Shown: positions 2,404 to 53,243 of the stretch, piece after piece
How positions within the stretch are numbered: the first letter of the stretch is position 1
How the letters are laid out: every line of letters begins with the position of its first letter
Virus record (IMG/VR): IMGVR_UViG_3300032053_000047
Location: 8,990-72,989 of that record
Source: a virus
DNA: 64,000 nucleotides
Reading direction: 5' to 3' (one strand)
Notes under the pieces: model-generated
Databases searched by the model: none
The model's input: the letters and a program-made list of their open reading frames with translations, nothing else
Told to the model about the DNA's origin: nothing
Made by a program: the position numbers and the translations under genes

Positions 2404-3357
2404 ATGGCTTCTCAGACAGAGCCTATTTCAACGTATGATGTCCCCAATTATGTAGGCGAGGTTCTTTACCTCGGCGCTACACTGGGGAAAAGCCCACTCC
2501 TGTCCATGGCGGGCCTGACAGACGGTTATGAAACATCCCAGTGGAATGAGTATCCAATGGGCAACGTCCTCAGTGGTAACGCTGCCGCGCAGAACGTCGT
2601 AACTGAAGATGCTTCTATTGCGGCTATTGCCAGAACCAGTTATGCCGCAGCCCAGGCAACGAACTTCCTGGAAATCCACGACGTATCATACGTCCAGTCA
2701 TACGCCCGCGCAGCCCTTCAGGGCGGAATCAGCGGCGTGGCTATCAATGGTGCAAAAGCTGCCGTGATTGGCAGCCTGGAAACCCAGCGGACAGCCCACC
2801 TAAAACAGTTGGCGTGTGATCTCGAATTCTCAGCCCTCCGCGGCACGGTCCAAGCATGGACGAATGCTGCTACTGCCGGCGCGACCCGCGGTCTCGTAAC
2901 CGCCATCGAAGCCGGGTCCGAAACTGCTGCGGCTGGCGCATCGCTATCCAAGACGTTGATCGACACCGAGATCGCGCGTATGGCCGCGGCGGGTGCCGAG
3001 TTCACTCGCATGGTGATCGCGTGCAACGCTCACCAAATGCAGATGTTGAACACCTTGTACGGGTTTGCCCCCCAGAGCATTACCGTTGCGGGCGTCCAAC
3101 TTCAGCAGATCTGGTTGCCAATTGCGGGCCAGTGCGGCGTGGTCTATGACTCCGTACTCGCAACCGACGACCTAGTGTTCGTGGACATGGAGCATTTCCG
3201 GCCCGTGTTCGGAATCGTGCCGGGCAAACCGCCGATCTTCGTCGAACCGCTCGGCAAGATCGCGGCAGGCGAACAGGAACAGTTGTACTGCCTGTTCGGC
3301 ATCGACTACTCGAACATCATCTTCCACGGCATGGTGAGCGGACTTGCCACGTCGTAA
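2404..3357 (+). CDS. Major capsid protein (DUF5309/SU10-like HK97 fold)
   Basis: 317 aa, strong SD (AGGAG), follows scaffold; LKQLACDLEFSALRG and EPLGKIAAGEQEQ motifs; followed by a hairpin. Confidence 0.85.
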   Translation: MASQTEPISTYDVPNYVGEVLYLGATLGKSPLLSMAGLTDGYETSQWNEYPMGNVLSGNAAAQNVVTEDASIAAIARTSYAAAQATNFLEIHDVSYVQSYARAALQGGISGVAINGAKAAVIGSLETQRTAHLKQLACDLEFSALRGTVQAWTNAATAGATRGLVTAIEAGSETAAAGASLSKTLIDTEIARMAAAGAEFTRMVIACNAHQMQMLNTLYGFAPQSITVAGVQLQQIWLPIAGQCGVVYDSVLATDDLVFVDMEHFRPVFGIVPGKPPIFVEPLGKIAAGEQEQLYCLFGIDYSNIIFHGMVSGLATS

Positions 3358-3378
3358 GCAGTAAACAGTTGAAGTGCG

Positions 3379-3402
3379 GCGGGGTCTAATAATAGGCCCC
3401 GC
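3379..3402 (+). terminator. Hairpin after major capsid gene
   Basis: GCGGGGTCT-AATAAT-AGGCCCCGC; weak U tail. Confidence 0.5.
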
Positions 3403-3430
3403 TAATTAACCACAAATAGAGAGGATCTAT

Positions 3431-3874
3431 ATGGACGCGATACACATGCAAGCGAGGCTCGATGCGTTTTATCACGAAATGTCCGCGATGATCACTGATG
3501 TCGGGGTACAGGATGTTGCTGAAACCGACCTCGATGAAATCCTTGTGATATTACGGGAACGCTGCCTGTGGAAGAAAGAAAACGACACCACACTAAACGC
3601 TATGGGCACTGGTAGTAAATCCCGTGCGCAGGCGTTTGGAGAACTCAGTCTTGGCAATGCGCAAATCCAACGGATTCTCAAAGAGTTTTATGTGGGGCGA
3701 CCAAAACTGAAAATGCTGGTAACGGAAACACCTAAACCGGAAACACTAGAAGCGCTTCCGGCATTTCCGATTCCGGTAACGCCCCTAGTGAAACGCGGGC
3801 CGGGTAGGCCTCCTAAAGTACGTGATGCGGAACTTGCGCCCCCGGAATCTGCCCCTACGCCCGAAACTGAATAA
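3431..3874 (+). CDS. Hypothetical protein with C-terminal AT-hook-like motif
   Basis: KRGPGRPPK near C terminus; SD GAGGA. Confidence 0.6.
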   Translation: MDAIHMQARLDAFYHEMSAMITDVGVQDVAETDLDEILVILRERCLWKKENDTTLNAMGTGSKSRAQAFGELSLGNAQIQRILKEFYVGRPKLKMLVTETPKPETLEALPAFPIPVTPLVKRGPGRPPKVRDAELAPPESAPTPETE

Positions 3875-8837: not shown

Positions 8838-9793
8838 AGATCCTACTCCTAAATTTGGAATTCGATTGCGGCGGCGCATCTTGGAATCTGATGGAGGCGA
8901 TCCGGACGTGCCACCCTGGGCACGAAGTCAGGCACGCCATATTCAAGACCACCTACGCCGCTCCTAATAGTGACATTCTATTCAAGCGAGTAGAAGATCT
9001 GTTGCCGTTCTGCGAATGGGCCGATGTGATTCACTTCAATAACTGGCTTTGGACACACAAACCCGGCAACAATCGGCTCGGGTTCTATCCCGTTAATGAG
9101 TATGGCGGACCCTCGCCGTTTGAATCCGTATTGCAGGACAAAAGCAAAACTATCGTTTATCATTTCCACGGCGGCAATCACCAACTCAACCCGAAATATT
9201 GGCTTGACGAATGCACTCGCATTGGCGTTCGTATCCTGAAATGCGACCCGTTGTGTCCGATACCCGGTGCAACATGGTTGCCAAACGTACTCGACCTGAA
9301 ACCCGCGCAGGTCTGCCGACATCAGCCGTTCGGCGTGGCTATCATGGGCAATGTTAGCGATCAACGCCGAAACAATTATGCTATCCAATCCGTGTTGAAA
9401 TACCTCGATATCCCGCACAAGTTTTTTGGTGAAGTTCCCCGTCAAATTGCTCTCGTGGAACGCCGCAAATACCCGGTGTGTATTGATAATCTCACCCAGG
9501 GGTTCGCAGGCATGTGGACGTGGGAAGCCCTCGCCATGGGACAGGTGCCGATTGCGCGGCTGGACCCGGCGGTAACGGTGCAATATCAGGGTGCGCCTAT
9601 TGTCCAATGTCCCAACCTCGATTGGGTATCATTTCGACTTCGGCGATTTCAGGATGACCCGGTATTCTGGGATCAATGGTCGCGGGCCGGGGTTGCGTGG
9701 ACGGAGGAACACAATTCATCTGCCGCGGTAGCGGGCCGGTATATCGAGTTTTACCAAAAGGCAAAAGATGATCCAGACAATCTCAATCATTGA
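8834..9793 (+). CDS. GT-B (GT4-like) glycosyltransferase
   Basis: MKILLL start, ADVIHF, HFHG, WEALAMGQVPI; ATGA coupling. Confidence 0.75.
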   Translation: MKILLLNLEFDCGGASWNLMEAIRTCHPGHEVRHAIFKTTYAAPNSDILFKRVEDLLPFCEWADVIHFNNWLWTHKPGNNRLGFYPVNEYGGPSPFESVLQDKSKTIVYHFHGGNHQLNPKYWLDECTRIGVRILKCDPLCPIPGATWLPNVLDLKPAQVCRHQPFGVAIMGNVSDQRRNNYAIQSVLKYLDIPHKFFGEVPRQIALVERRKYPVCIDNLTQGFAGMWTWEALAMGQVPIARLDPAVTVQYQGAPIVQCPNLDWVSFRLRRFQDDPVFWDQWSRAGVAWTEEHNSSAAVAGRYIEFYQKAKDDPDNLNH

Positions 9794-35574: not shown

Positions 35575-36672
35575 TCAGGTAAATCGCGCCTGCGCCGCGT
35601 CTAATTTCGGCTTGCAATTTCCGGGGTGGACGTAGTGCATTGTCATGCGGATATCGCTATGCCCGGCCTGTCTCTGGACATCCGGCAGGGGTATTCCCCA
35701 AACGTTGACGGCCAGACTGCAAAACGTGTGGCGGAGGTCTTTGACGTTGCACCGCCGCTCGAATCCCTCAGCTGCCAATGCCCGCGTGAGGCCATTGTAG
35801 AGGATGTTGTTCGTGAGGGGATATCCCTCAGTCCCAGTAAACACAATTTCACTACTGATCCCCCGCACCCGTTCCCGTTCCAGGACAGCAATCACGGCCC
35901 CGCTGATTTCAAATGTTGCTAGTCGCCGCGCCTTCTTTTGAGTCCGTTCCACAATTCCCGTTTTCAGGTTTACTTGCCGCCATTTCAGCGCCGTCGCGTC
36001 CGAAGGCCGCTGGCCAGTCAATCCAATCCATCGGATACAATTGGCAATGTGTGGCGCTCGTTGGGCGACAATTTCAAAGACGCGGGCGAGTTGATCCTCA
36101 GTCAGCGGCCAGATCTCCGGTTCCTCGCATTTCGGCAGGAGCCATTTGCGGATCGGCGACTGGCCTATCAGTTCCCGATCCACAGCGGCGTTCAGACAGG
36201 CCCTCAACATCATCAGCCGGTTCCGCGTCGTCTTGGCCGCATGGCCATCCCGGATGCGGCTGTCGGCGGCCCAGGCGTCCACAGTAGCCGGTGTGAGTTG
36301 GGATACCCGCCCGATATTGCGGCCCGCGCAGAATTGTTGGAAATCATATAGGACGCGGTTCGCCAGCGCGATTGTGCCGTCCGCAGCATTTTTCGCAGGT
36401 AGCACTTTATCTACATAATGGTCAACAATATCCCGAATACGGGGCCCCGCCGGGTCTTCCCCATCGGTCTGGGCCTCAGCAGCATGGTCTGTTATGAGTG
36501 CCGGCACGACTTCTTCCTTATATTGAGTCAGTGCGGCGTGGGCCTCAGCCTCCGACTGGGCGTTTATAAGCCGCCGGGTCCGCTCCTTTGTCCCCGGCCA
36601 ATAAGTACTAATCCCCCAGCGGTTTTTGGCGCGGTTGCGGTAGAGTGAGACGATAGGTTCGTTACGGCGCAT
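35575..36672 (-). CDS. int: Tyrosine integrase
   Basis: TGQRPSD (catalytic R), KDLRHT, AGHSDIRMTMHY. Confidence 0.95.
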   Translation of the reverse strand: MRRNEPIVSLYRNRAKNRWGISTYWPGTKERTRRLINAQSEAEAHAALTQYKEEVVPALITDHAAEAQTDGEDPAGPRIRDIVDHYVDKVLPAKNAADGTIALANRVLYDFQQFCAGRNIGRVSQLTPATVDAWAADSRIRDGHAAKTTRNRLMMLRACLNAAVDRELIGQSPIRKWLLPKCEEPEIWPLTEDQLARVFEIVAQRAPHIANCIRWIGLTGQRPSDATALKWRQVNLKTGIVERTQKKARRLATFEISGAVIAVLERERVRGISSEIVFTGTEGYPLTNNILYNGLTRALAAEGFERRCNVKDLRHTFCSLAVNVWGIPLPDVQRQAGHSDIRMTMHYVHPGNCKPKLDAAQARFT

Positions 36673-36947
36673 GGGGCGACTCGGTTTTGACGACTTCAAC
36701 TACGTCATCACCCGGCGCAGCATCGACTATCCGCATACTCATTTTTATCTTGTTTGGGGCGCATGGTAGGGCGGTTAGGACGACCTTTTTCCCAGCTTCC
36801 CGCAATGTGTCCGCGGGGAGTTTATCCGGCCATGCCCGTATGTGGCGGCGGTGGATTTCCGCATAGGTTTCCCGTTGCGTTCGGGCGATGACCTCCCCTT
36901 CACGTTCACGGAATGAACGGGTATCAGGCGGATCTTGCCGGATCATG
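36662..36947 (-). CDS. Hypothetical protein upstream of the integrase
   Basis: ORF overlapping the integrase start; start uncertain. Confidence 0.4.
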
Positions 36948-37078
36948 AAAACATGAATAATGCTGCTATACCGAAGACGGCTAACATAATTGATGACCAC
37001 ATGTTTTCAAACGCATTACCCATTCCAAAGAATAGAGGACCAAGGGCACCAATGAATATTCCGAGTAAATCCCACATG

Positions 37079-37450
37079 TCAATTCTCCTCTTTTATCGCT
37101 GCTAAAATCCGTTCGATGTTTCGTTTGTTCTTTCCATATGCGACAATTTGGCCTAATGTCTTAGAATTGGCCTCGATACGCGTAGTTTTTTCGTCTACGG
37201 GGGTGAGAATCAGCGTGACTTCATCACCCCATGTCCAGAGACTTACCGGCGTACCTGCTGTGATTATGCCCGCCTGTTTATCACTGAACTTGACGGTCCA
37301 ACCAAGATCGGCGACTGCACGGACCGCCGCAGAGAAAGCCGTATCTATATTTCCGCCGTAAACGACAGGGTCAATGCCGCCGCGCCCCGTACTCGTGGAA
37401 GCACACCCGAAGAGGAACAAAACTAAAACAATACACAATCCGCGTTTCAT
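37079..37450 (-). CDS. Lipoprotein
   Basis: MKRGLCIVLVLFLFGC lipobox. Confidence 0.8.
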   Translation of the reverse strand: MKRGLCIVLVLFLFGCASTSTGRGGIDPVVYGGNIDTAFSAAVRAVADLGWTVKFSDKQAGIITAGTPVSLWTWGDEVTLILTPVDEKTTRIEANSKTLGQIVAYGKNKRNIERILAAIKEEN

Positions 37451-37453
37451 CGC

Positions 37454-37966
37454 CTACCGACCTCCGTAGTTGCTCGCGCGCGCTTCCCGTTTATGCGTCA
37501 CCGCCTCAATGGCTTTTTGTCGCCATAATGCTGTATCTCCGGCATTTCCGGGCGCAGTCTGAGTGATCGGCACAAGATCTGTATGAATGCCGTCTGGCAG
37601 ATTGGCAGATGCACCACTTGCCGCGTCAATCCCTATGCCTATAGGCGCAAGCAGGCCGATTAGTAATAGGTTGCCAAAACCCGATCCCGCCGCGTTCTTT
37701 CCTACTGTTCGGTTAATAGGAGAGGTGACGGTATGATATCCGTCAAGAGTGTAGGTAGCAAAATAGTTCTTCTTTTTGGAGAGTTTTATTGTCCCCGGTG
37801 TGGTAGTCGTAAAGTAAAGACCCGGCTTTTTCGATTCCACGGCCACCTTTGCGCCGCGAGGTTCAGAGGTAAAAGTAACGTTCTTGCTCGTATTGCCTAG
37901 AATTGTAGCGCAACTCGCCAAAGAAACGAGCATAATTATAATCACTGCAACCCTAACCCTTCTCAT
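37454..37966 (-). CDS. PEGA-domain lipoprotein
   Basis: Lipobox LASC; FTSEPRGAKV...TTPGTIKL. Confidence 0.8.
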   Translation of the reverse strand: MRRVRVAVIIIMLVSLASCATILGNTSKNVTFTSEPRGAKVAVESKKPGLYFTTTTPGTIKLSKKKNYFATYTLDGYHTVTSPINRTVGKNAAGSGFGNLLLIGLLAPIGIGIDAASGASANLPDGIHTDLVPITQTAPGNAGDTALWRQKAIEAVTHKREARASNYGGR

Positions 37967-38170
37967 AATGTCCCCTTTCTCGGTTTTTCCACTAGCTTTG
38001 TCCAGTGTTTCCTTCAATAATACCGTATTACTTATAACTCCTATTGACAAAGAAACCTATTGGTGATAAAAGGATTCCGCTGCGGTGCAGGCCACTCCTG
38101 AGTCTGCCGGGGTGCCGCCGATCCTGCCTAAATGATTTGGGGAGGTACGGGCATGAAGTCACAATACGAG

Positions 38171-38581
38171 TCATTTTTTGCCTGTCTTAAACGGCATCTC
38201 GGCGCGATCCATCGCGGTCGCATAGCAGGTTACAAACGTGCCAAGCTTTTCGATCTTTCGGTCGAGGCTGAACTCGCGGTCGGGCAAATTAAGAGCAGCG
38301 GCAAGCGCATTCGCGTCAAGCCTGGCAACCCTAAGCGGGTCCGAAGTTGAATCGCTAATTTCAGCGGGCGGCATTATCTTCATAATAAATCCATGTTCAC
38401 GCAACCAAGGCTCTAGGCTGGAACGCTTCTCTGGGCCAAGAACGCCACGGCTCACAAAATCATACAGCGGCTGCGGAGTTTTCAATCCAATTGCTTTGGC
38501 GATATCTGTTACGTGAATTCGCTTAGACGCGGCGGAAAGCGCCGCTCGTAGCCGTTCTTTTTCCGGTTCCATGTTGAACAT
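38171..38581 (-). CDS. CI-like repressor (HTH)
   Basis: VTDIAKAIGLKTPQPLYDF; divergent from the Cro-like gene. Confidence 0.65.
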   Translation of the reverse strand: MFNMEPEKERLRAALSAASKRIHVTDIAKAIGLKTPQPLYDFVSRGVLGPEKRSSLEPWLREHGFIMKIMPPAEISDSTSDPLRVARLDANALAAALNLPDREFSLDRKIEKLGTFVTCYATAMDRAEMPFKTGKK

Positions 38582-38649
38582 TGTAAACGCTGTAAGTCCT
38601 TATCACAAGCCTCTCTAGAGCAATCTAGACACCCCAGTCAAAATTCCTC

Positions 38650-38678
38650 TTGACAAATCTAGGTAAATCGTCTAAGAT
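38650..38678 (+). promoter_or_regulatory. Rightward early promoter with repeated (AA)TCTAG operator-like half-sites
   Basis: TTGACA-N17-TAAGAT; TCTAG repeated four times within 38613-38695. Confidence 0.75.
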
Positions 38679-38704
38679 TCTAAACGGAATCTAGGAGGTA
38701 CACG

Positions 38705-39016
38705 ATGAACAAAGACAATAATGACCGCCCGCCGAGGGCTGAACGGCTTCGTGAATTACGCGGTGAACGAACCCTCCGCGAAGTAGCTAAACAGTTGGGG
38801 CTTTCACCTGCAACCATATCACTTAATGAAAATGGATACCCAATTTCCGCCGAGGTAGCCAACCTCTACAGCCAATTCTATGGCGTCGAAGTATCCGAAT
38901 TTTGGACGCCACCGGAACTTCCAATGGCCGACGCGGCCCAATCCGCGTCCTCTTGCGCTGACAATAGTTTACCACTGGCCGACGAAAATTTCAACCTGGA
39001 AGATGTCCATGCCTAA
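38705..39016 (+). CDS. Cro-like XRE HTH regulator
   Basis: LRELRGERTLREVAKQLGLSPATISLNENG. Confidence 0.9.
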   Translation: MNKDNNDRPPRAERLRELRGERTLREVAKQLGLSPATISLNENGYPISAEVANLYSQFYGVEVSEFWTPPELPMADAAQSASSCADNSLPLADENFNLEDVHA

Positions 39017-39299
39017 AGTCGCAACTGCCGATCTCGCGATGCGCGAGTACTGGACCCCCGCCCAGGCGGCGCGGGTGCTCGGCCACGGGGCGGCATTCTG
39101 GCGGGCCGCGTTTGACCGCGGCGACGTCCAGGGGCAACTCGCGGGGGATCGCCGGTATCTAGTCGCCGGTTCAGCCCGCGTCTACCTGACTGGCCTATGC
39201 CGGGCCACTGCGCCCACAAAACCGCTGCAAACCCGCGGAGAAGCGGCTGTAGCGCGGTTCATGGCCCAACATGGGGCGCGGCCAGTTAGTACGAATTGA
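39009..39299 (+). CDS. Excisionase-like HTH protein
   Basis: YWTPAQAARVLG...DRGDV...RRYLV. Confidence 0.7.
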   Translation: MPKVATADLAMREYWTPAQAARVLGHGAAFWRAAFDRGDVQGQLAGDRRYLVAGSARVYLTGLCRATAPTKPLQTRGEAAVARFMAQHGARPVSTN

Positions 39300-39341
39300 C
39301 GAAAACGGAGGGGATCTGAAATTTGAATCGGCAACGCCGAC

Positions 39342-39415
39342 GGCAGGCTTGGCGCGGCTAGGCACGGCGAGGAATGGCCTGGCTAGGACCGGCTGGGCAC
39401 GGCATGGGATGGTTT
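39342..39415 (+). repeat. GGN-NN pentamer array 1 (candidate guide RNA)
   Basis: GGCA followed by 14 in-phase pentamers, all starting GG (10 of 14 GGC). Confidence 0.9.
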
Positions 39416-39434
39416 ACAAAATGGAGGAAACAAC

Positions 39435-40106
39435 GTGAAGAAGACAGAGGAAGCGGAAGCGGCACCAAAACAAAAGACGGTTTTAATTGAAAAGCCAAAC
39501 ATGGAAATCGGGCTTTTCCGTATCCGTGGAACGGCTCCTTATGTGCAACACCGTTTCGCCACGAAAGCCAAGGAAATGATGAAGGCGAAACAGGAAGCCG
39601 GATCAACGGCAGCAAAAGGCGCAAAGCGAGAAGCTAAAAACTTCATGGCAGAGTATGAGGCGGCGATGTACAAGATCGGCGCAAACGGGAAACCGGTGGA
39701 ACATGGCATTCCCGCGCCTGCATTCCGTAACGCCATGATCTCGGCTTGCCGGGTTGTCGGCTTCCCTATGACGCGCGGCAAGTTGGCCGTGTTTGTGGAG
39801 GCCGATGCGTTCGATGAAAGCGACGGCACGCCCTTGGTGCGCATCATCAAAGGCAAACCCCACTGTACTGAAATGCCAGTGCGCCTCGAAACAGGCGTGA
39901 TCGATATTAGGGTACGCCCGATGTGGGACGCGGGGTGGGAAGCCGAAGTGCGTATCCGATTCGATGCCGACATGTTCACGTTGGAAGACATCGGAAATCT
40001 GTTGTTCCGGGCGGGCGTGCAGGTAGGTATCGGTGAAGGACGGCCCGACAGCAAAAAGTCCTGCGGGATGGGCTGGGGGTTATTCGAGGTTGTCAAAAGC
40101 AAGTAG
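39435..40106 (+). CDS. Stand-alone RAMP/Cas7-like protein
   Basis: FRIRGTAPY strand, GIPAPAFRNAMISA helix, C-terminal G-rich loop GIGEGRP...GMGWGLFEV; SD GGAGG. Confidence 0.75.
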   Translation: MKKTEEAEAAPKQKTVLIEKPNMEIGLFRIRGTAPYVQHRFATKAKEMMKAKQEAGSTAAKGAKREAKNFMAEYEAAMYKIGANGKPVEHGIPAPAFRNAMISACRVVGFPMTRGKLAVFVEADAFDESDGTPLVRIIKGKPHCTEMPVRLETGVIDIRVRPMWDAGWEAEVRIRFDADMFTLEDIGNLLFRAGVQVGIGEGRPDSKKSCGMGWGLFEVVKSK

Positions 40107-40134
40107 CCGCCGCTGTGTGTGATAGTTGAATCAA

Positions 40135-40280
40135 GGCAGGCACGGCGGGGCCGGGCATGGCGGGGCTCAACGGGGTTCGGCTTGGCGCGACTTGGCGAGA
40201 TAGGCTTGGCAGGCGCGGTTCGGCGGGGCGGGGCGGGGCGGGGCGGGGTATGGCACGGTTCGGCAAGGCATGGCAGGCAT
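40135..40280 (+). repeat. GGY-NN pentamer array 2 (two candidate guide units)
   Basis: ~26 pentamers punctuated by 4-nt GGCA units at 40135, 40208 and 40272. Confidence 0.9.
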
Positions 40281-40321
40281 GAAACGGTTGAGTGAGCGAA
40301 ACGACGAAAGGACAGAACGGA

Positions 40322-40774
40322 ATGGACAGTTCAGTGTTGGATGAACTTGAGATGATCCGCGTCAAAAGCGGCGGCGTGCTCAAGCCAGAAGATGTAGTCC
40401 AGCGGGCGAAGGGCAAAAGCAACCCGCTACACAAGTATTTCACATGGGATGATACGGCGGCGGCGCGTGAATACCGCCTGTGGCAGGCCCGTGAGTTAAT
40501 CCGCGTTCATGTGCGTATCGAATCACCGGGGCAAACATTTCCAACCCGCGTGTACGTCAGTCTCGATGCCGACCGGCAAGATGCGGGCGGCGGGTATCGC
40601 CACATCGACGACGTGTTAACCAATACAGACTTGCGCAGCCAACTACTTGACGAGGCCGACCGCGACTTCCGGTATTGGGAAGCCAAGTATTCACACTTGA
40701 AAGAACTCGCTGGCGTTATCGAATCAATGGATATGGTGCGGACAAGACGTAGCAAGAAATCCAAGGCGGCGTAA
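40322..40774 (+). CDS. Conserved phage protein, putative partner of the RAMP-like gene
   Basis: LKPEDVV...PLHKYFTWDDTAAAREYRLWQARELIR. Confidence 0.7.
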   Translation: MDSSVLDELEMIRVKSGGVLKPEDVVQRAKGKSNPLHKYFTWDDTAAAREYRLWQARELIRVHVRIESPGQTFPTRVYVSLDADRQDAGGGYRHIDDVLTNTDLRSQLLDEADRDFRYWEAKYSHLKELAGVIESMDMVRTRRSKKSKAA

Positions 40775-40784
40775 CGGAGGCCAC

Positions 40785-41060
40785 ATGACGGCACGTAAGT
40801 GGAAACAGAAACGGGCATTACAGCGGTTCGCGGAGGCGGTCCAGGCGCTACCCGGATTAGCCTTATGGGGAAAATGCAAAACGCTTGAAGACGTTCTGTA
40901 TCGCGTTGCCCATCCCGCTTGGCTGCCAATTGTAGATGCATGTACGGAAAGAACTGGTTTTGCGCCAATGGATGCGGCCAACATCGAATCCCGCAAGGAT
41001 ATTCGCTGGCTCTACCGGAGGTTACTTACCGCCTGCGGTGTTGATGCACGGCACGTATAG
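40785..41060 (+). CDS. Hypothetical protein
   Basis: SD GGAGG. Confidence 0.6.
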   Translation: MTARKWKQKRALQRFAEAVQALPGLALWGKCKTLEDVLYRVAHPAWLPIVDACTERTGFAPMDAANIESRKDIRWLYRRLLTACGVDARHV

Positions 41061-41240
41061 GAGAGGGGCATGAAAACGGCGATAGTCGCGTGTAAATGCG
41101 CACACGCATGGCAGGACGCCCGTTACGGCGCACACAACCGCGTGCATAACTACTCCCCGAACAAAACTTCGCCGAAATGGGTTTGCACAGTATGTCGCGC
41201 TGAAAAACCAGCGCCTAATATTTAAGAAAGGAGAGGAACT

Positions 41241-41474
41241 ATGAGACTAGAACTCTACGGCAGTGGACCACCGCAAGAGCAGGTGACACGGATTCGGGTG
41301 CGGCAAAATACTGACGCCATCATTATTGACGCAGTTGATGCCAATGGCAACCAAGTAGAGCATGGACTTTTGTTCGAGTTGACACCTAAAGGCCTTGAAT
41401 GTTTTTGCAAGGTTAATAAGACATTGGGATTTCCCCTTGAAGGTGCTGGTTATATCAAGGTCATTAACAAATAG
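41241..41474 (+). CDS. Hypothetical protein
   Basis: SD AGGAG. Confidence 0.6.
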   Translation: MRLELYGSGPPQEQVTRIRVRQNTDAIIIDAVDANGNQVEHGLLFELTPKGLECFCKVNKTLGFPLEGAGYIKVINK

Positions 41475-41531
41475 CCTCCTTCCGCCGCGAGCCGGGGCGC
41501 GGAGTAGTACCCCGGCATAGAATTGAACTGT

Positions 41532-41604
41532 AGTCGTGTAGCGCAATAGGTAGAGCGCGGCGCTGTTAACGCCGAGGTTGTAGGTTCGAGTCCTACCGCG
41601 ACTG
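41532..41604 (+). tRNA. tRNA-Asn(GTT)
   Basis: Full cloverleaf; anticodon arm CGGCG-CTGTTAA-CGCCG; T-arm GTAGG-TTCGAGT-CCTAC; no encoded CCA. Confidence 0.93.
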
Positions 41605-41629
41605 TTAAAAGTTGAAGAACCGATCCCCG

Positions 41630-41727
41630 GTGTGCCGCTGGGCACGTTCATCCTCACCATCCAACCCAGTAGCCGATTCACTCAGATAGGGACGCGCCAC
41701 CCTCGCGTCCCATGCTCAGCGGCACAC
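41630..41727 (+). ncRNA. Structured RNA with a 15-bp closing stem and C-rich interior
   Basis: GTGTGCCGCTGGGCA/TGCTCAGCGGCACAC. Confidence 0.55.
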
Positions 41728-41749
41728 TATAAAAATTGAATAGCTTTTT

Positions 41750-41814
41750 GATGTGCTGGGAAATGGTATAGCGGAGTTTGATAGTAAACAGGTTTCGATT
41801 CCTGCCAGCACATC
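41750..41814 (+). ncRNA. Minimal tRNA-like RNA
   Basis: GATGTGCTGG/CCAGCACATC stem plus a CAGG-TTTCGATT-CCTG T-arm; no anticodon arm. Confidence 0.55.
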
Positions 41815-41987
41815 GAGTTTGCGAGGATGTCACCGGGATTACCCGATGGCATTTCCGCAAAGTGGCGTCACCTGCCGTGCTCCGTTTATGCCTAGGCTGA
41901 GCGAAGTGGTGAGGGAACGCCGCCAGACTAGGCGTGACTTAATGCCACGGTTCAGAGTAACCGAGGCGAAGAAATTGAATAGTTCTT

Positions 41988-42175
41988 GATGTGTTGCGGC
42001 GTGGTGGGACACGCTAAAAGGCGGCAACGACCGGCTAGAACCACAAAGGGGTAGTGACCCTTTCGATTGTCGGTAAGTAGGTGAGCTACTTGTAAGACGA
42101 GCGCGGAAAGTGCCGATATTGACCCGCGCATGTGGAACCGAACAAACGGGCAGGTTCAAATCCTGCCAGCGCATC
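41988..42175 (+). ncRNA. tRNA-like RNA with a ~135-nt insert
   Basis: 9-bp acceptor-like stem, D-arm GCGT/ACGC, T-arm GCAGG-TTCAAAT-CCTGC. Confidence 0.6.
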
Positions 42176-42269
42176 GAGTTTTTGCCCGCCGAATGAGGGC
42201 AGTAGAACGCGAGAGAGGAGGTGGTCCGCGAGACGGCTAAGCGGACCCCATGACACAGTTGAATCTGAT

Positions 42270-42371
42270 CTTTGGCGTGCTACCGGCTACCCTTGCGGAA
42301 CATGCGCGAACCCTGCGGACTGTCTAGACAGCGCCGTAGCAAGTATGCACTAACGGTTTAGCACACCAAAG
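42270..42371 (+). ncRNA. Structured RNA with a 13-bp closing stem
   Basis: CTTTGGCGTGCTA/TAGCACACCAAAG (one mismatch); TTGAA leader and T-run trailer. Confidence 0.45.
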
Positions 42372-42493
42372 TTTTTGCGGCCTGTGATGCCGCGAGCGGC
42401 GACACCAAGGATTCAATCTAGCCGCATAGTGCGTGCGGTGCCGGGTTTGTGGAAACTTTCCCGGCACCGCCCTCCCCAACGAAAGGAGAACTA

Positions 42494-42850
42494 ATGTTCA
42501 GGTTAACGACAAACGACGATACTGTTGTGTTTCAGGTCCCGTGTGGAGAGGGAACTATCCGCTTTGAATGTTATTGCGGAAGCGGAGGCGCTGCATTAGT
42601 CGTTGCTAATGCACTTCGCAATGCCCATCCGGTTCTCTTCGACACCATTGAAACGGAACCCCATGTGTTAAAAAGTGAAGGGGATTGGCTACGTGAACGG
42701 TTACATGAAGTACAGACGAAAATGGATCGTGCCGTGGCGGAGATACGCGATTTGGAGAAGATAGCGAAAAATACATCACCTATCCCTACACTTCAAGAAT
42801 TTGGATTGTTTCGAGACGCCGTGTTCGCGGCGGTGAAAAGAATCGAATAG
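42494..42850 (+). CDS. Hypothetical protein within the RNA cluster
   Basis: SD AAGGAG before ATG 42494. Confidence 0.6.
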   Translation: MFRLTTNDDTVVFQVPCGEGTIRFECYCGSGGAALVVANALRNAHPVLFDTIETEPHVLKSEGDWLRERLHEVQTKMDRAVAEIRDLEKIAKNTSPIPTLQEFGLFRDAVFAAVKRIE

Positions 42851-42869
42851 TTACCAAAGTTGAATTCGT

Positions 42870-42958
42870 GGGCGAGTGGCGAAATTGGCAAACGCAGCGG
42901 ACTTAAAATCCGCTACCCCGGCCAGGGGTTTTTGTAGGTTCGAGTCCTGCCTCGCCCA
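42870..42958 (+). tRNA. tRNA-Leu(TAA)
   Basis: GGGCGAG/CTCGCCC acceptor; GCGGA-CTTAAAA-TCCGC anticodon arm; long variable arm; T-arm. Confidence 0.93.
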
Positions 42959-43373
42959 TCTTATGAATTATTAAACTATTAGGTTTTGGCTAATAGTTGC
43001 CCCGGAGAGTACGGGTATACAGTTGAATATTTTTAGGTGTGCTGTGGCCGAAGGAATGCGTGACGGGCGCGAGAAATCGCGTTGGTAGTGCGACGACGGC
43101 CCCAACGGTCGGCTCAATGATGGAGTAAGGAACAAACCCCTAGAGCAGCAAGCAGGTCAGCCGGGCGCGGGTGATTTTACCCGTAATGACAGTACAGGCC
43201 GAGATAATCGCCTGATAGCCATAGTATACCGATTTCCCAGCAGCGACCTTGCGGGGCCGTGCGGTGACATGGCGTAGCTCTCCCATAGAGAACGTCATGG
43301 CATCGTTACATCAACCCGTTCCGGTTCTATCACGGCTGAGGCCGGACGCCGCTCGGATAACAGTTGACGGGTA

Positions 43374-43487
43374 TCGGCGGATGTCCCAATGGCACTGTCC
43401 AGGAACAGTGGTCGGGCTTCGTGCGGTGCGTCCCTGGCGGGTGCGTGGGGTTCGATTCCCCAACGCACAGAATGCAGCATCCGCCGA
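43374..43487 (+). ncRNA. T-loop-containing structured RNA
   Basis: TCGGCGGATG/CATCCGCCGA 10-bp stem; GGGG-TTCGATT-CCCC hairpin. Confidence 0.5.
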
Positions 43488-43549
43488 GTTTTAGCGATGC
43501 CAAGGAGCGGGTCAACAGCGGCCCGCCCCCGCAAAGAAAGGAAAATGAT

Positions 43550-43780
43550 ATGAAAATCGTAGACAATAGAATCACTAAAACATCAATAATGGTAAATTCA
43601 GAAGATATTAAAGTGGGCATATATTTTATGGGACGCATCAATGAATGTAACGGCCTTTTCTTGCGTATCTATGAGGGAGTCGTATTTATCGATGATCCGG
43701 CCTATACGTGGAATGGATCGTGTGATGTAAGTGAGTACGAGCCTATCGAGGTCGAGATCCACATTGAACGGAACCCGTAA
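43550..43780 (+). CDS. Hypothetical protein
   Basis: SD AAGGA before ATG 43550. Confidence 0.55.
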   Translation: MKIVDNRITKTSIMVNSEDIKVGIYFMGRINECNGLFLRIYEGVVFIDDPAYTWNGSCDVSEYEPIEVEIHIERNP

Positions 43781-43907
43781 TGGCTAACTTCACGCGCCAG
43801 ATCCGCCTGAAGCGTAGGCGTAGTAAACCTAAATTCAGAGGTACGAAAGCGGGCAAAGAATCGGGTTACACACGGGCGGTTAAACGGGCGTTTGGAGGAA
43901 CGCGGTA

Positions 43908-44810
43908 ATGGCAGAGTTCATATCAAAAAGCGAGATTTTAGAAGCTATCAAAAGCGCACGAGCGACAATGCGGTCCGCAGATGAAGCCGCGAACGACATG
44001 GCTATCCTACTGATTGGTAGATTGCATCATGTTGGCTCATATGCCCTGAACGAGCTAAAGCACGAACTTGCGCGGTACAACATGCATACGCAGATGTGGA
44101 TATGACAACCCCACGCCCGATCTTCGCCAAGACGATCAAACCGGATAACCCGCCCCGGTCCACGCGCATCGCAGCCAGCCACTACCATTTTCAGGGCGCA
44201 TACTACGACGCCGATCCTATCCACCAACCTGACAAACCCACCCGCAAACGCCCACCCGATTACGATTATGACCGCCGCTGTACCGGGTGTGGCAAAGTGC
44301 CCGAATGTTGCGAATGTGATGAGGAAGACGCACGAAACTACCGGGAAAGGCACGGATTATGAACCAGACCATCAAAGAGGGTCTCGACCGCTATACACAA
44401 CACCATGTACAAACAGGTTCGTTTCTACGGGCTGTGCTTGAAAACGATCTCAGAGACGCCGTGTGTAGGGCTGATGATGACAATATGCGTGATCTGCGGG
44501 AGATCGTCATGTACGTATACTGGGAACTACCGGGCCAGTGTTGGGGATCGCCTGAACTTGTCCGGGCATGGCTTGCACAGAAACCGGCGACAGCGGAAGC
44601 AACAGTATGATCACCGAGCGCCACTTAGCTCTAACTGAAATAATGATCGCCATTCTTGAGGAAATGACTCGCGTATGCGGTGCGCTATCACCACTGGCGT
44701 GCAAATATTACGCGACCCTGGAGGGCTGTTACACTGGTATTGCGCATAGCCGCGCAGTCGAGGTTCTGCATGTGCGGAACTGTGGCGGTGCTACGGGGTG
44801 TACTGAATGA
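43908..44810 (+). CDS. Four coupled small hypothetical genes (43908-44105, 44102-44362, 44359-44610, 44607-44810)
   Basis: Successive ATGA overlaps. Confidence 0.55.
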
Positions 44811-44879
44811 ACTGAAACGGGTCGCCAGTGCGGGCACCGCGCTAGCGGATACAACGAAGACAACGAAGGGAGACTCGGA

Positions 44880-45830
44880 ATGGGAACTGAATTAGTAGCA
44901 CAAAATGAACGTGATCTCGCAACTCGCTCAGACGTATGCCATATGCTGAGCGTTGCCGAGGTCAAGGCGCAAATGGATGCACTTGAAGAACTCATGCGTA
45001 TCTGCCTGAAAAAGGGCGATCTTGCCAAGGGCAATGAGGGCGATTACTACACGTTGCCCGGTGGCAAAAAGCCCTGTCTAAGTAAGGCGGGCGCACAAAA
45101 AGTAGCGACGATGTTTCGCTTTGCCGCATCCTACCCGATCATCGAAGATCTGAGCACAGCGAATGAATCGCGGTATCGCGTCCTGTGCCGCCTCACCCGG
45201 CCCGATGGTTTATTCGTTGGCGAACAATGGGGCGAGGCCAGTTCGGCGGAATCAAAAAATCGGTGGCGTAAGGCGCTCGATGACGAAGAGTTTGACAGTT
45301 CACATGAAGATGAGAAACGGATCGTAAAACGCAAGAACCAAAACGGCGACGTGTACGAAGTGAAGCAGATCATGGTAAACCGCGCCGATAGTACAACGAA
45401 CGTGTTGCCAAAGGCGCAGAAACGTGCCTACGTTCAAGTTGTGCTTGCCGCCTCGGGCGCGTCCTGCCTGTTTACGAGCGGCCTTGAACCGGATGATCCC
45501 GATTCTGCTGGTGATGGTAACGGCAAAGAGCCGCACAAACCGATTCAGAAACCCCAGGCGAAAAAGGAGTCCGCGCCCGCATCCGACAGTAGTGATATCA
45601 AAACGATCCAAGGCGTGGTTACGCGAGTAGCTGAAAAACCAACAGCCAAGGGTGGTACTCGCTTTGGTGTCTGCATTTTGGATGCATGGTACAACACATT
45701 TGATGACAAAATCGCGGCAGTGTGCGCAAAGGGCGTGATCATCACGCTGGTCTATAAAGTCGGTCAGTACGGCAACGATATTGTATCGGCGGAAATATTC
45801 AACGAACAACCAGGCGAGGCGGCGGAATGA
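44880..45830 (+). CDS. Putative single-strand annealing/recombination protein
   Basis: KPCLSKAGAQK...KAQKRAYV...ASCLFT; C-terminal OB-like domain; adjacent to an exonuclease gene. Confidence 0.6.
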   Translation: MGTELVAQNERDLATRSDVCHMLSVAEVKAQMDALEELMRICLKKGDLAKGNEGDYYTLPGGKKPCLSKAGAQKVATMFRFAASYPIIEDLSTANESRYRVLCRLTRPDGLFVGEQWGEASSAESKNRWRKALDDEEFDSSHEDEKRIVKRKNQNGDVYEVKQIMVNRADSTTNVLPKAQKRAYVQVVLAASGASCLFTSGLEPDDPDSAGDGNGKEPHKPIQKPQAKKESAPASDSSDIKTIQGVVTRVAEKPTAKGGTRFGVCILDAWYNTFDDKIAAVCAKGVIITLVYKVGQYGNDIVSAEIFNEQPGEAAE

Positions 45831-49707: not shown

Positions 49708-50388
49708 ATGCAGATTAAAAGCCGATGGAATGGCGAAGTACTGTATGAATGTGAGGCCGATAGTCTAATCGAGGTTGTCATTAAGGCCGTAGAAGCGGAG
49801 GCCAACCTCGCGGGGGCCAACCTCGCGAGGGCCGACCTCACGAGGGCCGACCTCACGAGGGCCGACCTCGCGGGGGCCAACCTCACGAGGGCCGACCTCA
49901 CGAGGGCCAACCTCACGGAGGCCGACCTCGCGGGGGCCAACCTCGCGGAGGCCAACCTCACGAGGGCCGACCTCGCGAGGGCCAACCTCGCGGGGGCCGA
50001 CCTCACGAGGGCCTACCTCGCGAGGGCCGACCTCACGAGGGCCAACCTCGCGGGGGCCGACCTCACGGGGGCCGAGTTACCACATTTCCAAATCTGTCCT
50101 GAAGTCGGTAGTTTTATCGGCTTCAAAAAGCTAGACAACGGCATAATTGCCACACTATTGATCCCAGACGGTGCGCGGCGTATGACGCCGCTCGGTTATC
50201 GGAAATGCCGGGCTGAACGTGTGCGTGTATTAAGCGGCAATGGCAAAAGTCCAACCGCCAATACCAAACTGGAATACCGCGAGGGCGACATGGTTGAGGC
50301 GGACTCGTTTGATGATGATATCCGGGTCGAATACAGCCACGGGATCGCGTTTTTTGTGACGCGGAAGGAAGCTGAGGAGTGGATATGA
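49708..50388 (+). CDS. Pentapeptide-repeat protein with a DUF5758-like C terminus
   Basis: ~18 A(D/N)Lxx repeats (15-bp DNA repeats at 49801-50075); RKCRAE, SHGIAFF. Confidence 0.9.
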
Positions 50389-52559: not shown

Positions 52560-53243
52560 ATGGATATTTTTAGAATCAAGAGTATTAGTGACTTTGAGCA
52601 ATTCAAAACTGAAATCGGCTACCACGTGAAAGGACATCTGAAAATCGAATGTCCTATCTCACTCTGTGGATCGTTAATCGTTGATGGGTCCATCCATGCG
52701 GGCGAGTCCATCAAGGCGGGCGGGTTCATCGAGGCGGGCAGGTCCATCCATGCGGGCGAGTTCATCAAGGCGGGCAGGTTCATCAAGGCGGGCGGGTTCA
52801 TCGAGGCGGGCAGGTCCATCCATGCGGGCGAGTCCATCAAGGCGGGCGGGTTCATCGAGGCGGGCAGGTTCATCAAGGCGGGCGGGTTCATCGAGGCGGG
52901 CGGGTTCATCGAGGCGGGCGGGTCGATCCAGGCGCATGAGTCCATCCATGCGGGCGAGTACATCCATGCGGGCGGGTTTGTGTTTTCCTTCACCTTCTCT
53001 TTGTCCTGTAAGTGGCTTGAAACGCGCCTACTGCCGTTTTGGCGCGAATTCTATGCAACTATGCCACCGTTGCAAAAGTGGCGAGACAAGATTCTCAGCA
53101 AATCTTCTTGTTGGGGTGATCTACAAACATTAGTCACGCCTGATGAGGCTATGACTATCTGTGCATGGGATGGCTGGCATCCAATCATTAAGGCGCAACT
53201 GGAAATGTTTTTCGGTCTCAAAAAGCGCGTTGACTTTACCTAA
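52560..53243 (+). CDS. Hexapeptide-repeat (G.SI.A/G.FI.A) beta-helix-like protein
   Basis: ~16 tandem 18-bp repeats at 52686-52975. Confidence 0.8.
   Translation: MDIFRIKSISDFEQFKTEIGYHVKGHLKIECPISLCGSLIVDGSIHAGESIKAGGFIEAGRSIHAGEFIKAGRFIKAGGFIEAGRSIHAGESIKAGGFIEAGRFIKAGGFIEAGGFIEAGGSIQAHESIHAGEYIHAGGFVFSFTFSLSCKWLETRLLPFWREFYATMPPLQKWRDKILSKSSCWGDLQTLVTPDEAMTICAWDGWHPIIKAQLEMFFGLKKRVDFT

Follow-up and report, generated by a model that had tools for sequence, protein, structure and literature searches.

Phages can carry an RNA-guided system of their own, VIPR (Viral Interference Programmable Repeat), which was reported in four preprints between April and October 2026 (10.64898/2026.04.26.720920, 10.64898/2026.04.26.720927, 10.64898/2026.10.15.759431, 10.64898/2026.10.21.760802). 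As the first of these describes it, VIPR combines Vipr, a minimal RAMP protein that the phage encodes, with an accessory gene (vap) and guide RNAs termed vrRNAs, which are intergenic runs of at least 4 and typically 9–16 GGY/NN (YNNGG) pentamers beside vipr; types I–VII and accessory genes vap1 to vap6 are distinguished (10.64898/2026.04.26.720920). In the system of Escherichia phage SUSP1, one Vipr protomer sits on each repeat, holding GGY and exposing NN (10.64898/2026.04.26.720920; cryo-EM in 10.64898/2026.04.26.720927). The SUSP1 NN pairs were shown experimentally to read double-stranded DNA as xNNxNN, the skipped base being mostly the codon wobble base, and competing phages and satellites are silenced transcriptionally (10.64898/2026.04.26.720920). 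The same text describes 'staggered arrays with overlapping vrRNAs', and its legend to fig. S18 speaks of 1-nucleotide (nt) overlaps in which the end of one vrRNA is the start of the next; confirmation by small-RNA sequencing is stated there for the hammerhead and single-guide architectures only, not for the staggered one (10.64898/2026.04.26.720920). Here we analyze three pentamer arrays, and the two genes that accompany them, in a 64,000-nt stretch of virus DNA (the window), positions 8,990 to 72,989 of IMG/VR record IMGVR_UViG_3300032053_000047. We propose, with a probability that we put at about 90%, that these arrays are the vrRNA genes of a phage VIPR system.

The three arrays lie on the + strand and are built of GGYNN pentamers. 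Array A (39346–39415) has 14 of them, and its guide reads TT GC TA AC GA AT CT TA CC TG AC AT AT TT in the NN positions. Array B (40139–40198) has 12, two of which carry a degenerate scaffold (AACGG and GACTT), and reads AC GG CG AT GG TC GG TC TT GC TT GA. Array C (40212–40271) also has 12, five of them GGCGG, and reads GC TC GG GG GG GG GG AT AC TC AA AT. Each array is preceded on its 5' side by a 4-nt GGCA, a boundary at which the register breaks (39342–39345 for A, 40135–40138 for B, 40208–40211 for C). An irregular 9-nt junction, GATA + GGCTT (40199–40207), separates arrays B and C, and the last array ends with a closing GGCA and a final unit GGCAT (40272–40280). All of these elements are on the + strand, and GG comes next after GGCA each time (39342, 40135, 40208 and 40272). 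This division was confirmed by a dynamic-programming parse in which unit sizes of 3–7 nt were permitted. A sequence-only reading of the same DNA had claimed that GGCA at these four positions delimits runs of 12–14 pentamers. The parse reproduced this claim with identical NN strings and added two details, the GATA + GGCTT junction and the GGCAT unit that follows the fourth GGCA.

The pentamers have an almost invariant head and a variable tail. Among the 38 pentamers of the window, G occupies position 1 in 37 and position 2 in 36; position 3 is mostly C (30, with 5 T), and positions 4 (G13/T11/A11/C3) and 5 (C12/T11/G10/A5) are mixed. The pentamer phase is preserved across the degenerate units AACGG and GACTT, as had been seen by eye. 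When in-phase GG was scored as the best over 12 pentamer slots, the window reached 12/12 versus 5–7 in 20 mononucleotide shuffles. Beyond the arrays, no site on either strand of the 72,989-base contig had in-phase GG in at least 7 of 8 slots. The five GGCGG units of array C form a perfect period-5 repeat in Tandem Repeats Finder (TRF).

The gene between arrays A and B (39435..40106, + strand) encodes a protein of 223 amino acids (aa) that belongs to phrog_4652 (unknown function) and has no Pfam match. At E≤1e-5 it had 7027 relatives among 7610 candidate protein clusters. One relative in UniRef is named 'CRISPR-associated protein', and the ESM Atlas matches are unnamed viral clusters only. A profile built from 36 relatives of the 223-aa protein was compared with one built from 30 relatives of the 195-aa Vipr of SUSP1. 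Hhalign aligned the two families over 175 columns, nearly their full length, with a probability of 97.2% and an E value of 3e-11. In this alignment, the residues by which SUSP1 Vipr grips GGY correspond to invariant residues of the 223-aa family: the thumb arginine R138 to R161, D177 to E201, and R179 to R203. SUSP1 H17 corresponds to H39. The 223-aa protein has a G-rich loop, GIGEGRPDSKKSCGMGWG, near its C-terminus, and the G-loops of the two families align as GIGEGRP...GMGWG with GVGDWRP...FGRF. Because of the profile match and the aligned GGY-gripping residues, we assign the 223-aa protein by homology to Vipr, as a member of the SUSP1 / X1U2U4 Vipr family.

We wondered whether the arrays accompany this protein in other phages. 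Seven loci in IMG/VR encode relatives with 46–66% identity. In a phage collection, 31 records encode relatives, 25 from Mycobacterium phages, 5 from Gordonia phages and 1 from a cyanophage. We compared nine related loci, the seven from IMG/VR together with those of Cyanophage Cy-LDV1 and Mycobacterium phage Donkeykong, whose Vipr proteins are 33–66% identical to that of the window. In 8/9 of these loci, arrays of GGNNN pentamers lie directly beside vipr and on its strand. In the one locus that lacks them (L005), the sequence stops 12 bases before the position of the array in its twin, L006. Only two genes are conserved across the related loci, vipr and a partner gene. In the window the partner is a 150-aa open reading frame (ORF) at 40322..40774 on the + strand (ATG at 40322; an alternative GTG upstream, at 40292, would give 160 aa). 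It belongs to phrog_15946 (unknown function), and its homologue adjoins vipr in 9/9 related loci with 36–45% identity. We regard this gene as the candidate vap (Vipr accessory protein). Searches with its product gave nothing above noise in Pfam (MFAP1, E 0.047), no match in NCBIfam, and no PDB sequence below E 0.1.

The boundaries of the arrays are also conserved. In the window and seven distinct related loci together, the 532 pooled pentamers have G in 97%, G in 95%, and C in 73%, A in 20% or T in 6% at the first three positions, then mixed bases. The internal 4-nt units of the same loci are GGCA or CGCA in 43/45 cases. These units delimit 44 guides of at least 8 units, which range from 8 to 17 units, with 8–12 units in 37/44; the first preprint gives 9–16 for its vrRNAs (10.64898/2026.04.26.720920). 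Pieces of 1–2 units flanked by two 4-nt units, like the GATA + GGCTT junction, are also found in L007 and L009. The sequence-only reading had taken GGCAGG for a unit boundary, which is borne out by these counts and matches the staggered arrays as far as they are described in the published text. In Donkeykong (L009, NC_051648.1), an array of GGCNN units, 310 nt long and broken by GGCA six times, lies under an annotated coding sequence, gp48 ('hypothetical protein', 2498–2884), and the annotated start of the Vipr homologue gp49 (2851–3597) extends back into the array. Both gp48 and the gp49 start are probably annotation artefacts. The repeats of mycobacteriophage Tweety gp54 were considered as a relative of the arrays and set aside: in the source available to us they are a 12-bp coding repeat and unrelated. 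Pentamers that begin with GGA occur in two IMG/VR relatives, 43/133 in one (L001, 2081–3295) and 49/95 in the other (L002, 3898–4315). The heptamer TTGAATC stands at 39323–39329 and 40124–40130, 12 nt and 2 nt before the GGCA of arrays A and B; the array starts listed for the related loci lack it.

Taken together, the assignment to VIPR follows from the Vipr profile match, the GGY/NN grammar, and a partner gene that is syntenic in 9/9 related loci; by every sequence criterion that we examined, the arrays look like vrRNA genes. The locus would then work as follows. An early rightward operon would produce array A, vipr, arrays B and C, and the accessory gene in one transcript, as gene order and strand suggest. 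By homology to SUSP1, Vipr protomers would polymerize on the RNA, one per pentamer, gripping GGY and exposing NN. The exposed bases would pair with double-stranded DNA as NNxNNx, following codon positions 1 and 2 and ignoring the wobble base. The bound filament would block transcription of its target, in most cases a gene that belongs to a rival mobile element. Each 4-nt GGCA or CGCA would shift the 5-nt register by one base, so that one guide ends and the next begins. A filament with one protomer per pentamer presumably cannot cross a 4-nt unit, and the break would thus set the length of the guide. The RNA may be cut at GGCA, or the register break alone may part adjacent filaments; in the latter case a one-base break, with neither tail nor nuclease, may suffice to set guide length. 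In type II, vrRNAs are capped by a structured 3' tail, a role that the staggered architecture would take over here. The sequence-only reading had proposed guide-sized units whose information resides in NN and an NNxNNx code that skips the wobble base. This is essentially the mechanism that the VIPR preprints describe, as far as their available text goes, and the locus joins VIPR by homology.

We then searched for targets. The published criterion is an NN match of at least 80%, gapless, with no targets in the system's own contig (10.64898/2026.04.26.720920). Within the contig, the guides had no self-target at a skip of 0–2: the best matches were 16–19 of 24–28, within the range of shuffled guides, and the perfect matches at skip 3 were the arrays themselves. 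This absence agrees with what the first preprint states for its own systems (10.64898/2026.04.26.720920); the sequence-only reading had seen no convincing full target in the window by eye. Sequence collections were scanned with exact windows of 10 units at a 1-nt skip (20 fixed bases). Guide B had no match in viral contigs (windows B1-10, B2-11 and B3-12), and its window B2-11 had 7 matches in metagenome contigs and 5 in genome contigs. Five of these 12 matches (L013 and L018–L021) are one site in the DUF6996-DUF6997-DUF7226 gene family. The five genes are 47–83% identical to one another; they are matched in frame, with x at the wobble position, and agree with full guide B at 21–23 of 24. The 10-unit core corresponds exactly and in frame to the motif SGRMGSGSFAF of this gene, and over its full length guide B agrees at up to 23 of 24. 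The five matches count as one event, since genes that share a conserved motif are matched together. The remaining seven are singletons. Six of them come from metagenome contigs and share only the pattern, and in two of these the matched frame runs into stop codons less than or at 10 codons away; the genome-contig singleton (L022) lies inside a 29-codon open frame.

The DUF6996-DUF6997-DUF7226 protein (about 430 aa) is encoded directly downstream of a D12-class N6-adenine (Dam-class) methyltransferase in 24/24 loci (L013, 8603–10745; L018–L021; L024–L043). Because of this neighbor, the family is probably a putative, uncharacterized family of type II restriction enzymes. Its gene was found in 20/399 sampled genomes of one class (the class of genome G001). 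Guide B reached at least 80% in only 1/19 family members that had not been pre-selected (from the same sample), and the Vipr profile had no match in the 399 genomes. The full guide B at ≤3 mismatches was found in 1/301 genomes of the family of G001, which was G001 itself, versus 0 for a reversed-pattern control. In the five genomes with a guide B match, full guides A and C had no match at ≤3 mismatches. Restriction or defence genes are unmentioned as VIPR targets in the text of the first preprint, the only one of the four to which this statement applies (10.64898/2026.04.26.720920). The contig does not avoid GATC (355 observed vs 359 expected) and has no D12 methylase.

Guide C matched genes of another kind. 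Its window C3-12 had no match in viral contigs, and window C1-10 had three, all in frame at 'ASGGGGGITS' and at 22 of 24. The matched ORFs are long and tail-fibre-like; one matches tail-fibre PHROGs and one is without a PHROG match. Under the skip rule, the GGCGG x5 run calls for glycine in five successive codons; the guide C window of 10 units in which it lies corresponds to 'ASGGGGGITS' exactly. The suggestion of the sequence-only reading that the five GGCGG copies reflect decay is thus doubtful. Guide C does include a low-complexity (GGN)5 run. Assuming uniform base composition, chance would place 20 fixed bases about once in the genome collection (596 billion bases); for a 23-of-24 match, the expectation over all scanned sequence is likewise about 1. 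That guide B is aimed at a host defence gene, the putative restriction enzyme, rather than at a rival phage is a tentative idea that we think unlikely to be correct. If it were true, the phage would wield RNA-guided silencing as an anti-restriction device, with guide C aimed at competing phages, and a confirmed target in a restriction-modification operon would add to the uses known for VIPR.

Several observations count against the assignment of the arrays to VIPR. Guide A had 0 exact matches, whether in viral contigs (A1-10, A5-14) or in metagenome and genome contigs (A3-12). The matches of guides B and C, which reach the published cutoff of 80%, are candidates whose numbers may be no more than chance would give. 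A gapped search over several skips, which the sequence-only reading had put forward as a check, did not favor a 1-nt skip: when the 44 guides were compared with the contig and the nine related loci, a tiny target set, the mean best identity was 0.725/0.726/0.725 at skip 0/1/2, with no enrichment at skip 1 over skip 0 or 2. On the protein side, the similarity weakens when single sequences replace profiles. The 36-relative profile matched PDB entry 36pp_D ('SUSP1 Vipr protein') weakly, at E 0.42, and SUSP1 Vipr as a lone sequence reached a probability of 63% and an E value of 7e-5 over 46 columns. The predicted RAMP features of the 223-aa protein (RRM core, glycine-rich loop and thumb) are read from the profile alignment. 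SUSP1 W178, which stacks on G2, is replaced by G202. This replacement suggests that the pocket for pentamer position 3 may differ in the clade of the window's Vipr; purines are described as excluded from the SUSP1 pocket (10.64898/2026.04.26.720927), yet the two relatives with GGA units have one there. The 150-aa partner has no similarity to SUSP1 vap1, and the arrays show neither room for nor sign of a 3' tail of ~40 nt. Lastly, no RNA sequencing run that contains the locus is listed; the single run is DNA, from a sediment metagenome that may be the source sample.

Could the arrays serve another purpose? They might be cis-regulatory RNA leaders that control downstream translation, either wrapped by a TRAP-like protein or folded into two-tetrad G-quadruplexes. 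Array A ends 19 nt short of the vipr start codon and the final array 41 nt short of the next ATG, so a protein bound there could keep ribosomes from their binding sites. The GGN3 repeats and the (GGGGC)5 of array C have quadruplex potential by sequence, and a period of 5 made of a triplet plus a spacer resembles TRAP sites. However, regulation alone needs neither variable NN on an invariant scaffold nor 4-nt punctuation in 8 loci, and the neighboring protein is a homologue of Vipr, for which experiments have shown that this grammar guides DNA binding. We consider leaders very improbable as the whole explanation; autoregulation could occur alongside a guide function. If instead the arrays acted as double-stranded DNA, as replication-origin iterons, a partition site or a packaging site, their place in the early region, right after the immunity genes, would be a natural one, and short unspaced repeat arrays are protein-binding DNA in some plasmids. 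Their co-orientation with vipr in all 8 array-bearing loci rather fits a transcribed element, and the adjacent protein comes from an RNA-binding family, the RAMPs. We give a DNA site hardly any credence. Early candidates, namely a TRAP-like ring binder, G-quadruplexes, iterons and CsrA sponges, lost ground on the Vipr homology.

Two further explanations deny the arrays any role as nucleic acid. One is a functionless pentanucleotide microsatellite that drifts by replication slippage, which the five identical GGCGG units of array C do resemble. Outside that run, however, NN varies from unit to unit while GG stays at 36–37/38; slippage homogenizes units, so variable NN on a kept GG points away from a microsatellite. 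The recurrence of grammar, strand and punctuation beside vipr in a cyanophage and a mycobacteriophage contradicts it as well, and we agree with the sequence-only reading, which had argued against drift, that a microsatellite is scarcely believable. The other is that the arrays encode small Gly/Arg/Ala-rich repeat proteins. Open frames do cross them (39271–39438, 40119–40295 and 40157–40282), and the annotated Donkeykong gp48 spans the array of that phage. However, neither a single reading frame nor a repeated peptide could survive a 5-nt period with 4-nt shifts, the constraint falls on nucleotides 1–3 of the pentamer irrespective of frame, and open frames are expected of G-rich sequence that by its composition lacks stop codons. 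A coding function thus seems extremely unlikely, and vrRNA genes of a VIPR system remain our explanation of the arrays.

What kind of element carries this VIPR locus? The arrays lie in a single virus record of 72,989 bases that is rated 100% complete, of which the window is the greater part. The record encodes a portal, head proteins, a tape measure and a tyrosine integrase (35575–36699), and the carrier is a complete temperate tailed phage. Its portal protein matched only four records, from Enterococcus and Streptococcus phages, at 23–26% identity. After the integrase come a leftward ORF (38171–38581), a promoter-like site, TTGACA-17-TAAGAT (38650..38678, + strand; found by consensus scan only), just downstream of it a helix-turn-helix gene with an HTH_3 match (38705–39016, + strand), and then the + strand locus in the order array A, 223-aa ORF, arrays B and C, 150-aa ORF. 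We found no terminator-like site upstream of 41197. Given the common strand, the gene order and this absence, the arrays would most simply belong to an early rightward transcript, and the promoter-like site is the probable start of the early operon that contains them.

Other features of the region were noted in passing. Two tRNA genes detected with Rfam lie just downstream of the VIPR locus, at 41532–41604 and 42870–42958. Between the integrase and the leftward ORF, two small ORFs occupy 37079–38050 on the − strand, one of them with a lipoprotein-like signal (…LFLFGCAS); they may be cargo expressed in lysogeny. TRF also reported two long tandem repeats, 49800–50075 (period 15, 18.4 copies) and 52686–52978 (period 18, 16.3 copies), which are probably coding peptide repeats.

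These results support the interpretation of the sequence-only reading in substance: raw sequence can suffice to recover a whole RNA-guided system, including its noncontiguous code. With 7027 protein clusters, the Vipr clade whose GGC/GGA arrays are staggered and tail-less is very large; it reaches cyanophages and cluster-F-type mycobacteriophages, where the arrays either carry no annotation or are recorded as a protein gene. Four observations may be new: that distant phages share a near-invariant (G/C)GCA boundary, that two relatives have GGA units, that arrays of cluster-F-type mycobacteriophages are annotated as a gene, and that a restriction gene is a candidate target.

How does the locus compare with other repeat-based systems? 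TRAP binds the Bacillus trp leader at about 11 triplets separated by 2-nt spacers, again with a period of 5 and one oligomer subunit per triplet. It is nevertheless a closed ring without a RAMP fold that regulates the RNA of its own operon, and its spacers carry no information. In Class 1 CRISPR-Cas (Cas7 filament), as the VIPR preprints describe it, RAMP protomers polymerize on the guide RNA and a thumb breaks the duplex periodically, as in VIPR. Class 1 systems have a repeat-spacer array and a cas operon, and neither has a counterpart here: TRF found no repeat-spacer array of CRISPR size (period about 60–79 nt) in the window, and the neighbors of the arrays are a helix-turn-helix gene, small ORFs of unknown function and tRNAs, with no cas operon. 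Class 1 systems also pair 5 of 6 guide bases, whereas the guide of the window is noncontiguous and would use 2 of every 5.

Within VIPR, the closest characterized relatives are the type II systems found in Escherichia phage SUSP1 and in a prophage of Pseudomonas fulva, which share with the window a homologous Vipr and guides that flank the gene pair, as far as the published text describes them. In the SUSP1 locus, GGT-rich pentamer arrays flank the gene pair of the 195-aa Vipr and a 146-aa protein. By the same text, its vrRNAs are separate RNAs about 100 nt long that have individual leaders and end in a 3' tail of ~40 nt with a pseudoknot, and its units are GGT-rich; those of the window are GGC-rich, abut one another and lack a tail. 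We also found no significant structure in the array RNA, with folding z-scores versus shuffles of −0.5 (A), −1.8 (B) and +0.1 (C). The 5' flank of array B, CCGCCGCUGUGUG (40107–40150), is able to pair with the first units of array B, and array B with this flank has the sole mildly low folding z-score (−1.83; 7/200 shuffles fold equally well). An Rfam scan at E≤1 over 35000–45000 left the arrays unmatched and returned only the two tRNAs and a chance miRNA match. The hammerheads that lie between vrRNAs in the ribozyme-interspersed VIPR architecture were thus absent from that interval. With no space for a tail, no significant array structure, and a partner unrelated to vap1, the window locus is not a type II VIPR; glycine in place of SUSP1 W178 is a further difference from SUSP1.

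The locus instead resembles the VIPR staggered arrays. These, in the available text, have GGY/NN arrays on both sides of a phage vipr in a two-gene locus, as the window does, and their adjoining registers overlap by one base; judged by the fig. S18 legend, the 4-nt GGCA/CGCA found here is the same feature. A 4-nt unit inside a 5-nt register is how a 1-nt overlap appears in sequence, so that what the sequence-only reading called a phase shift is this staggered boundary. Since the class, the code and the staggered boundary are already in the 2026 preprints, the locus adds a member to VIPR rather than a principle.

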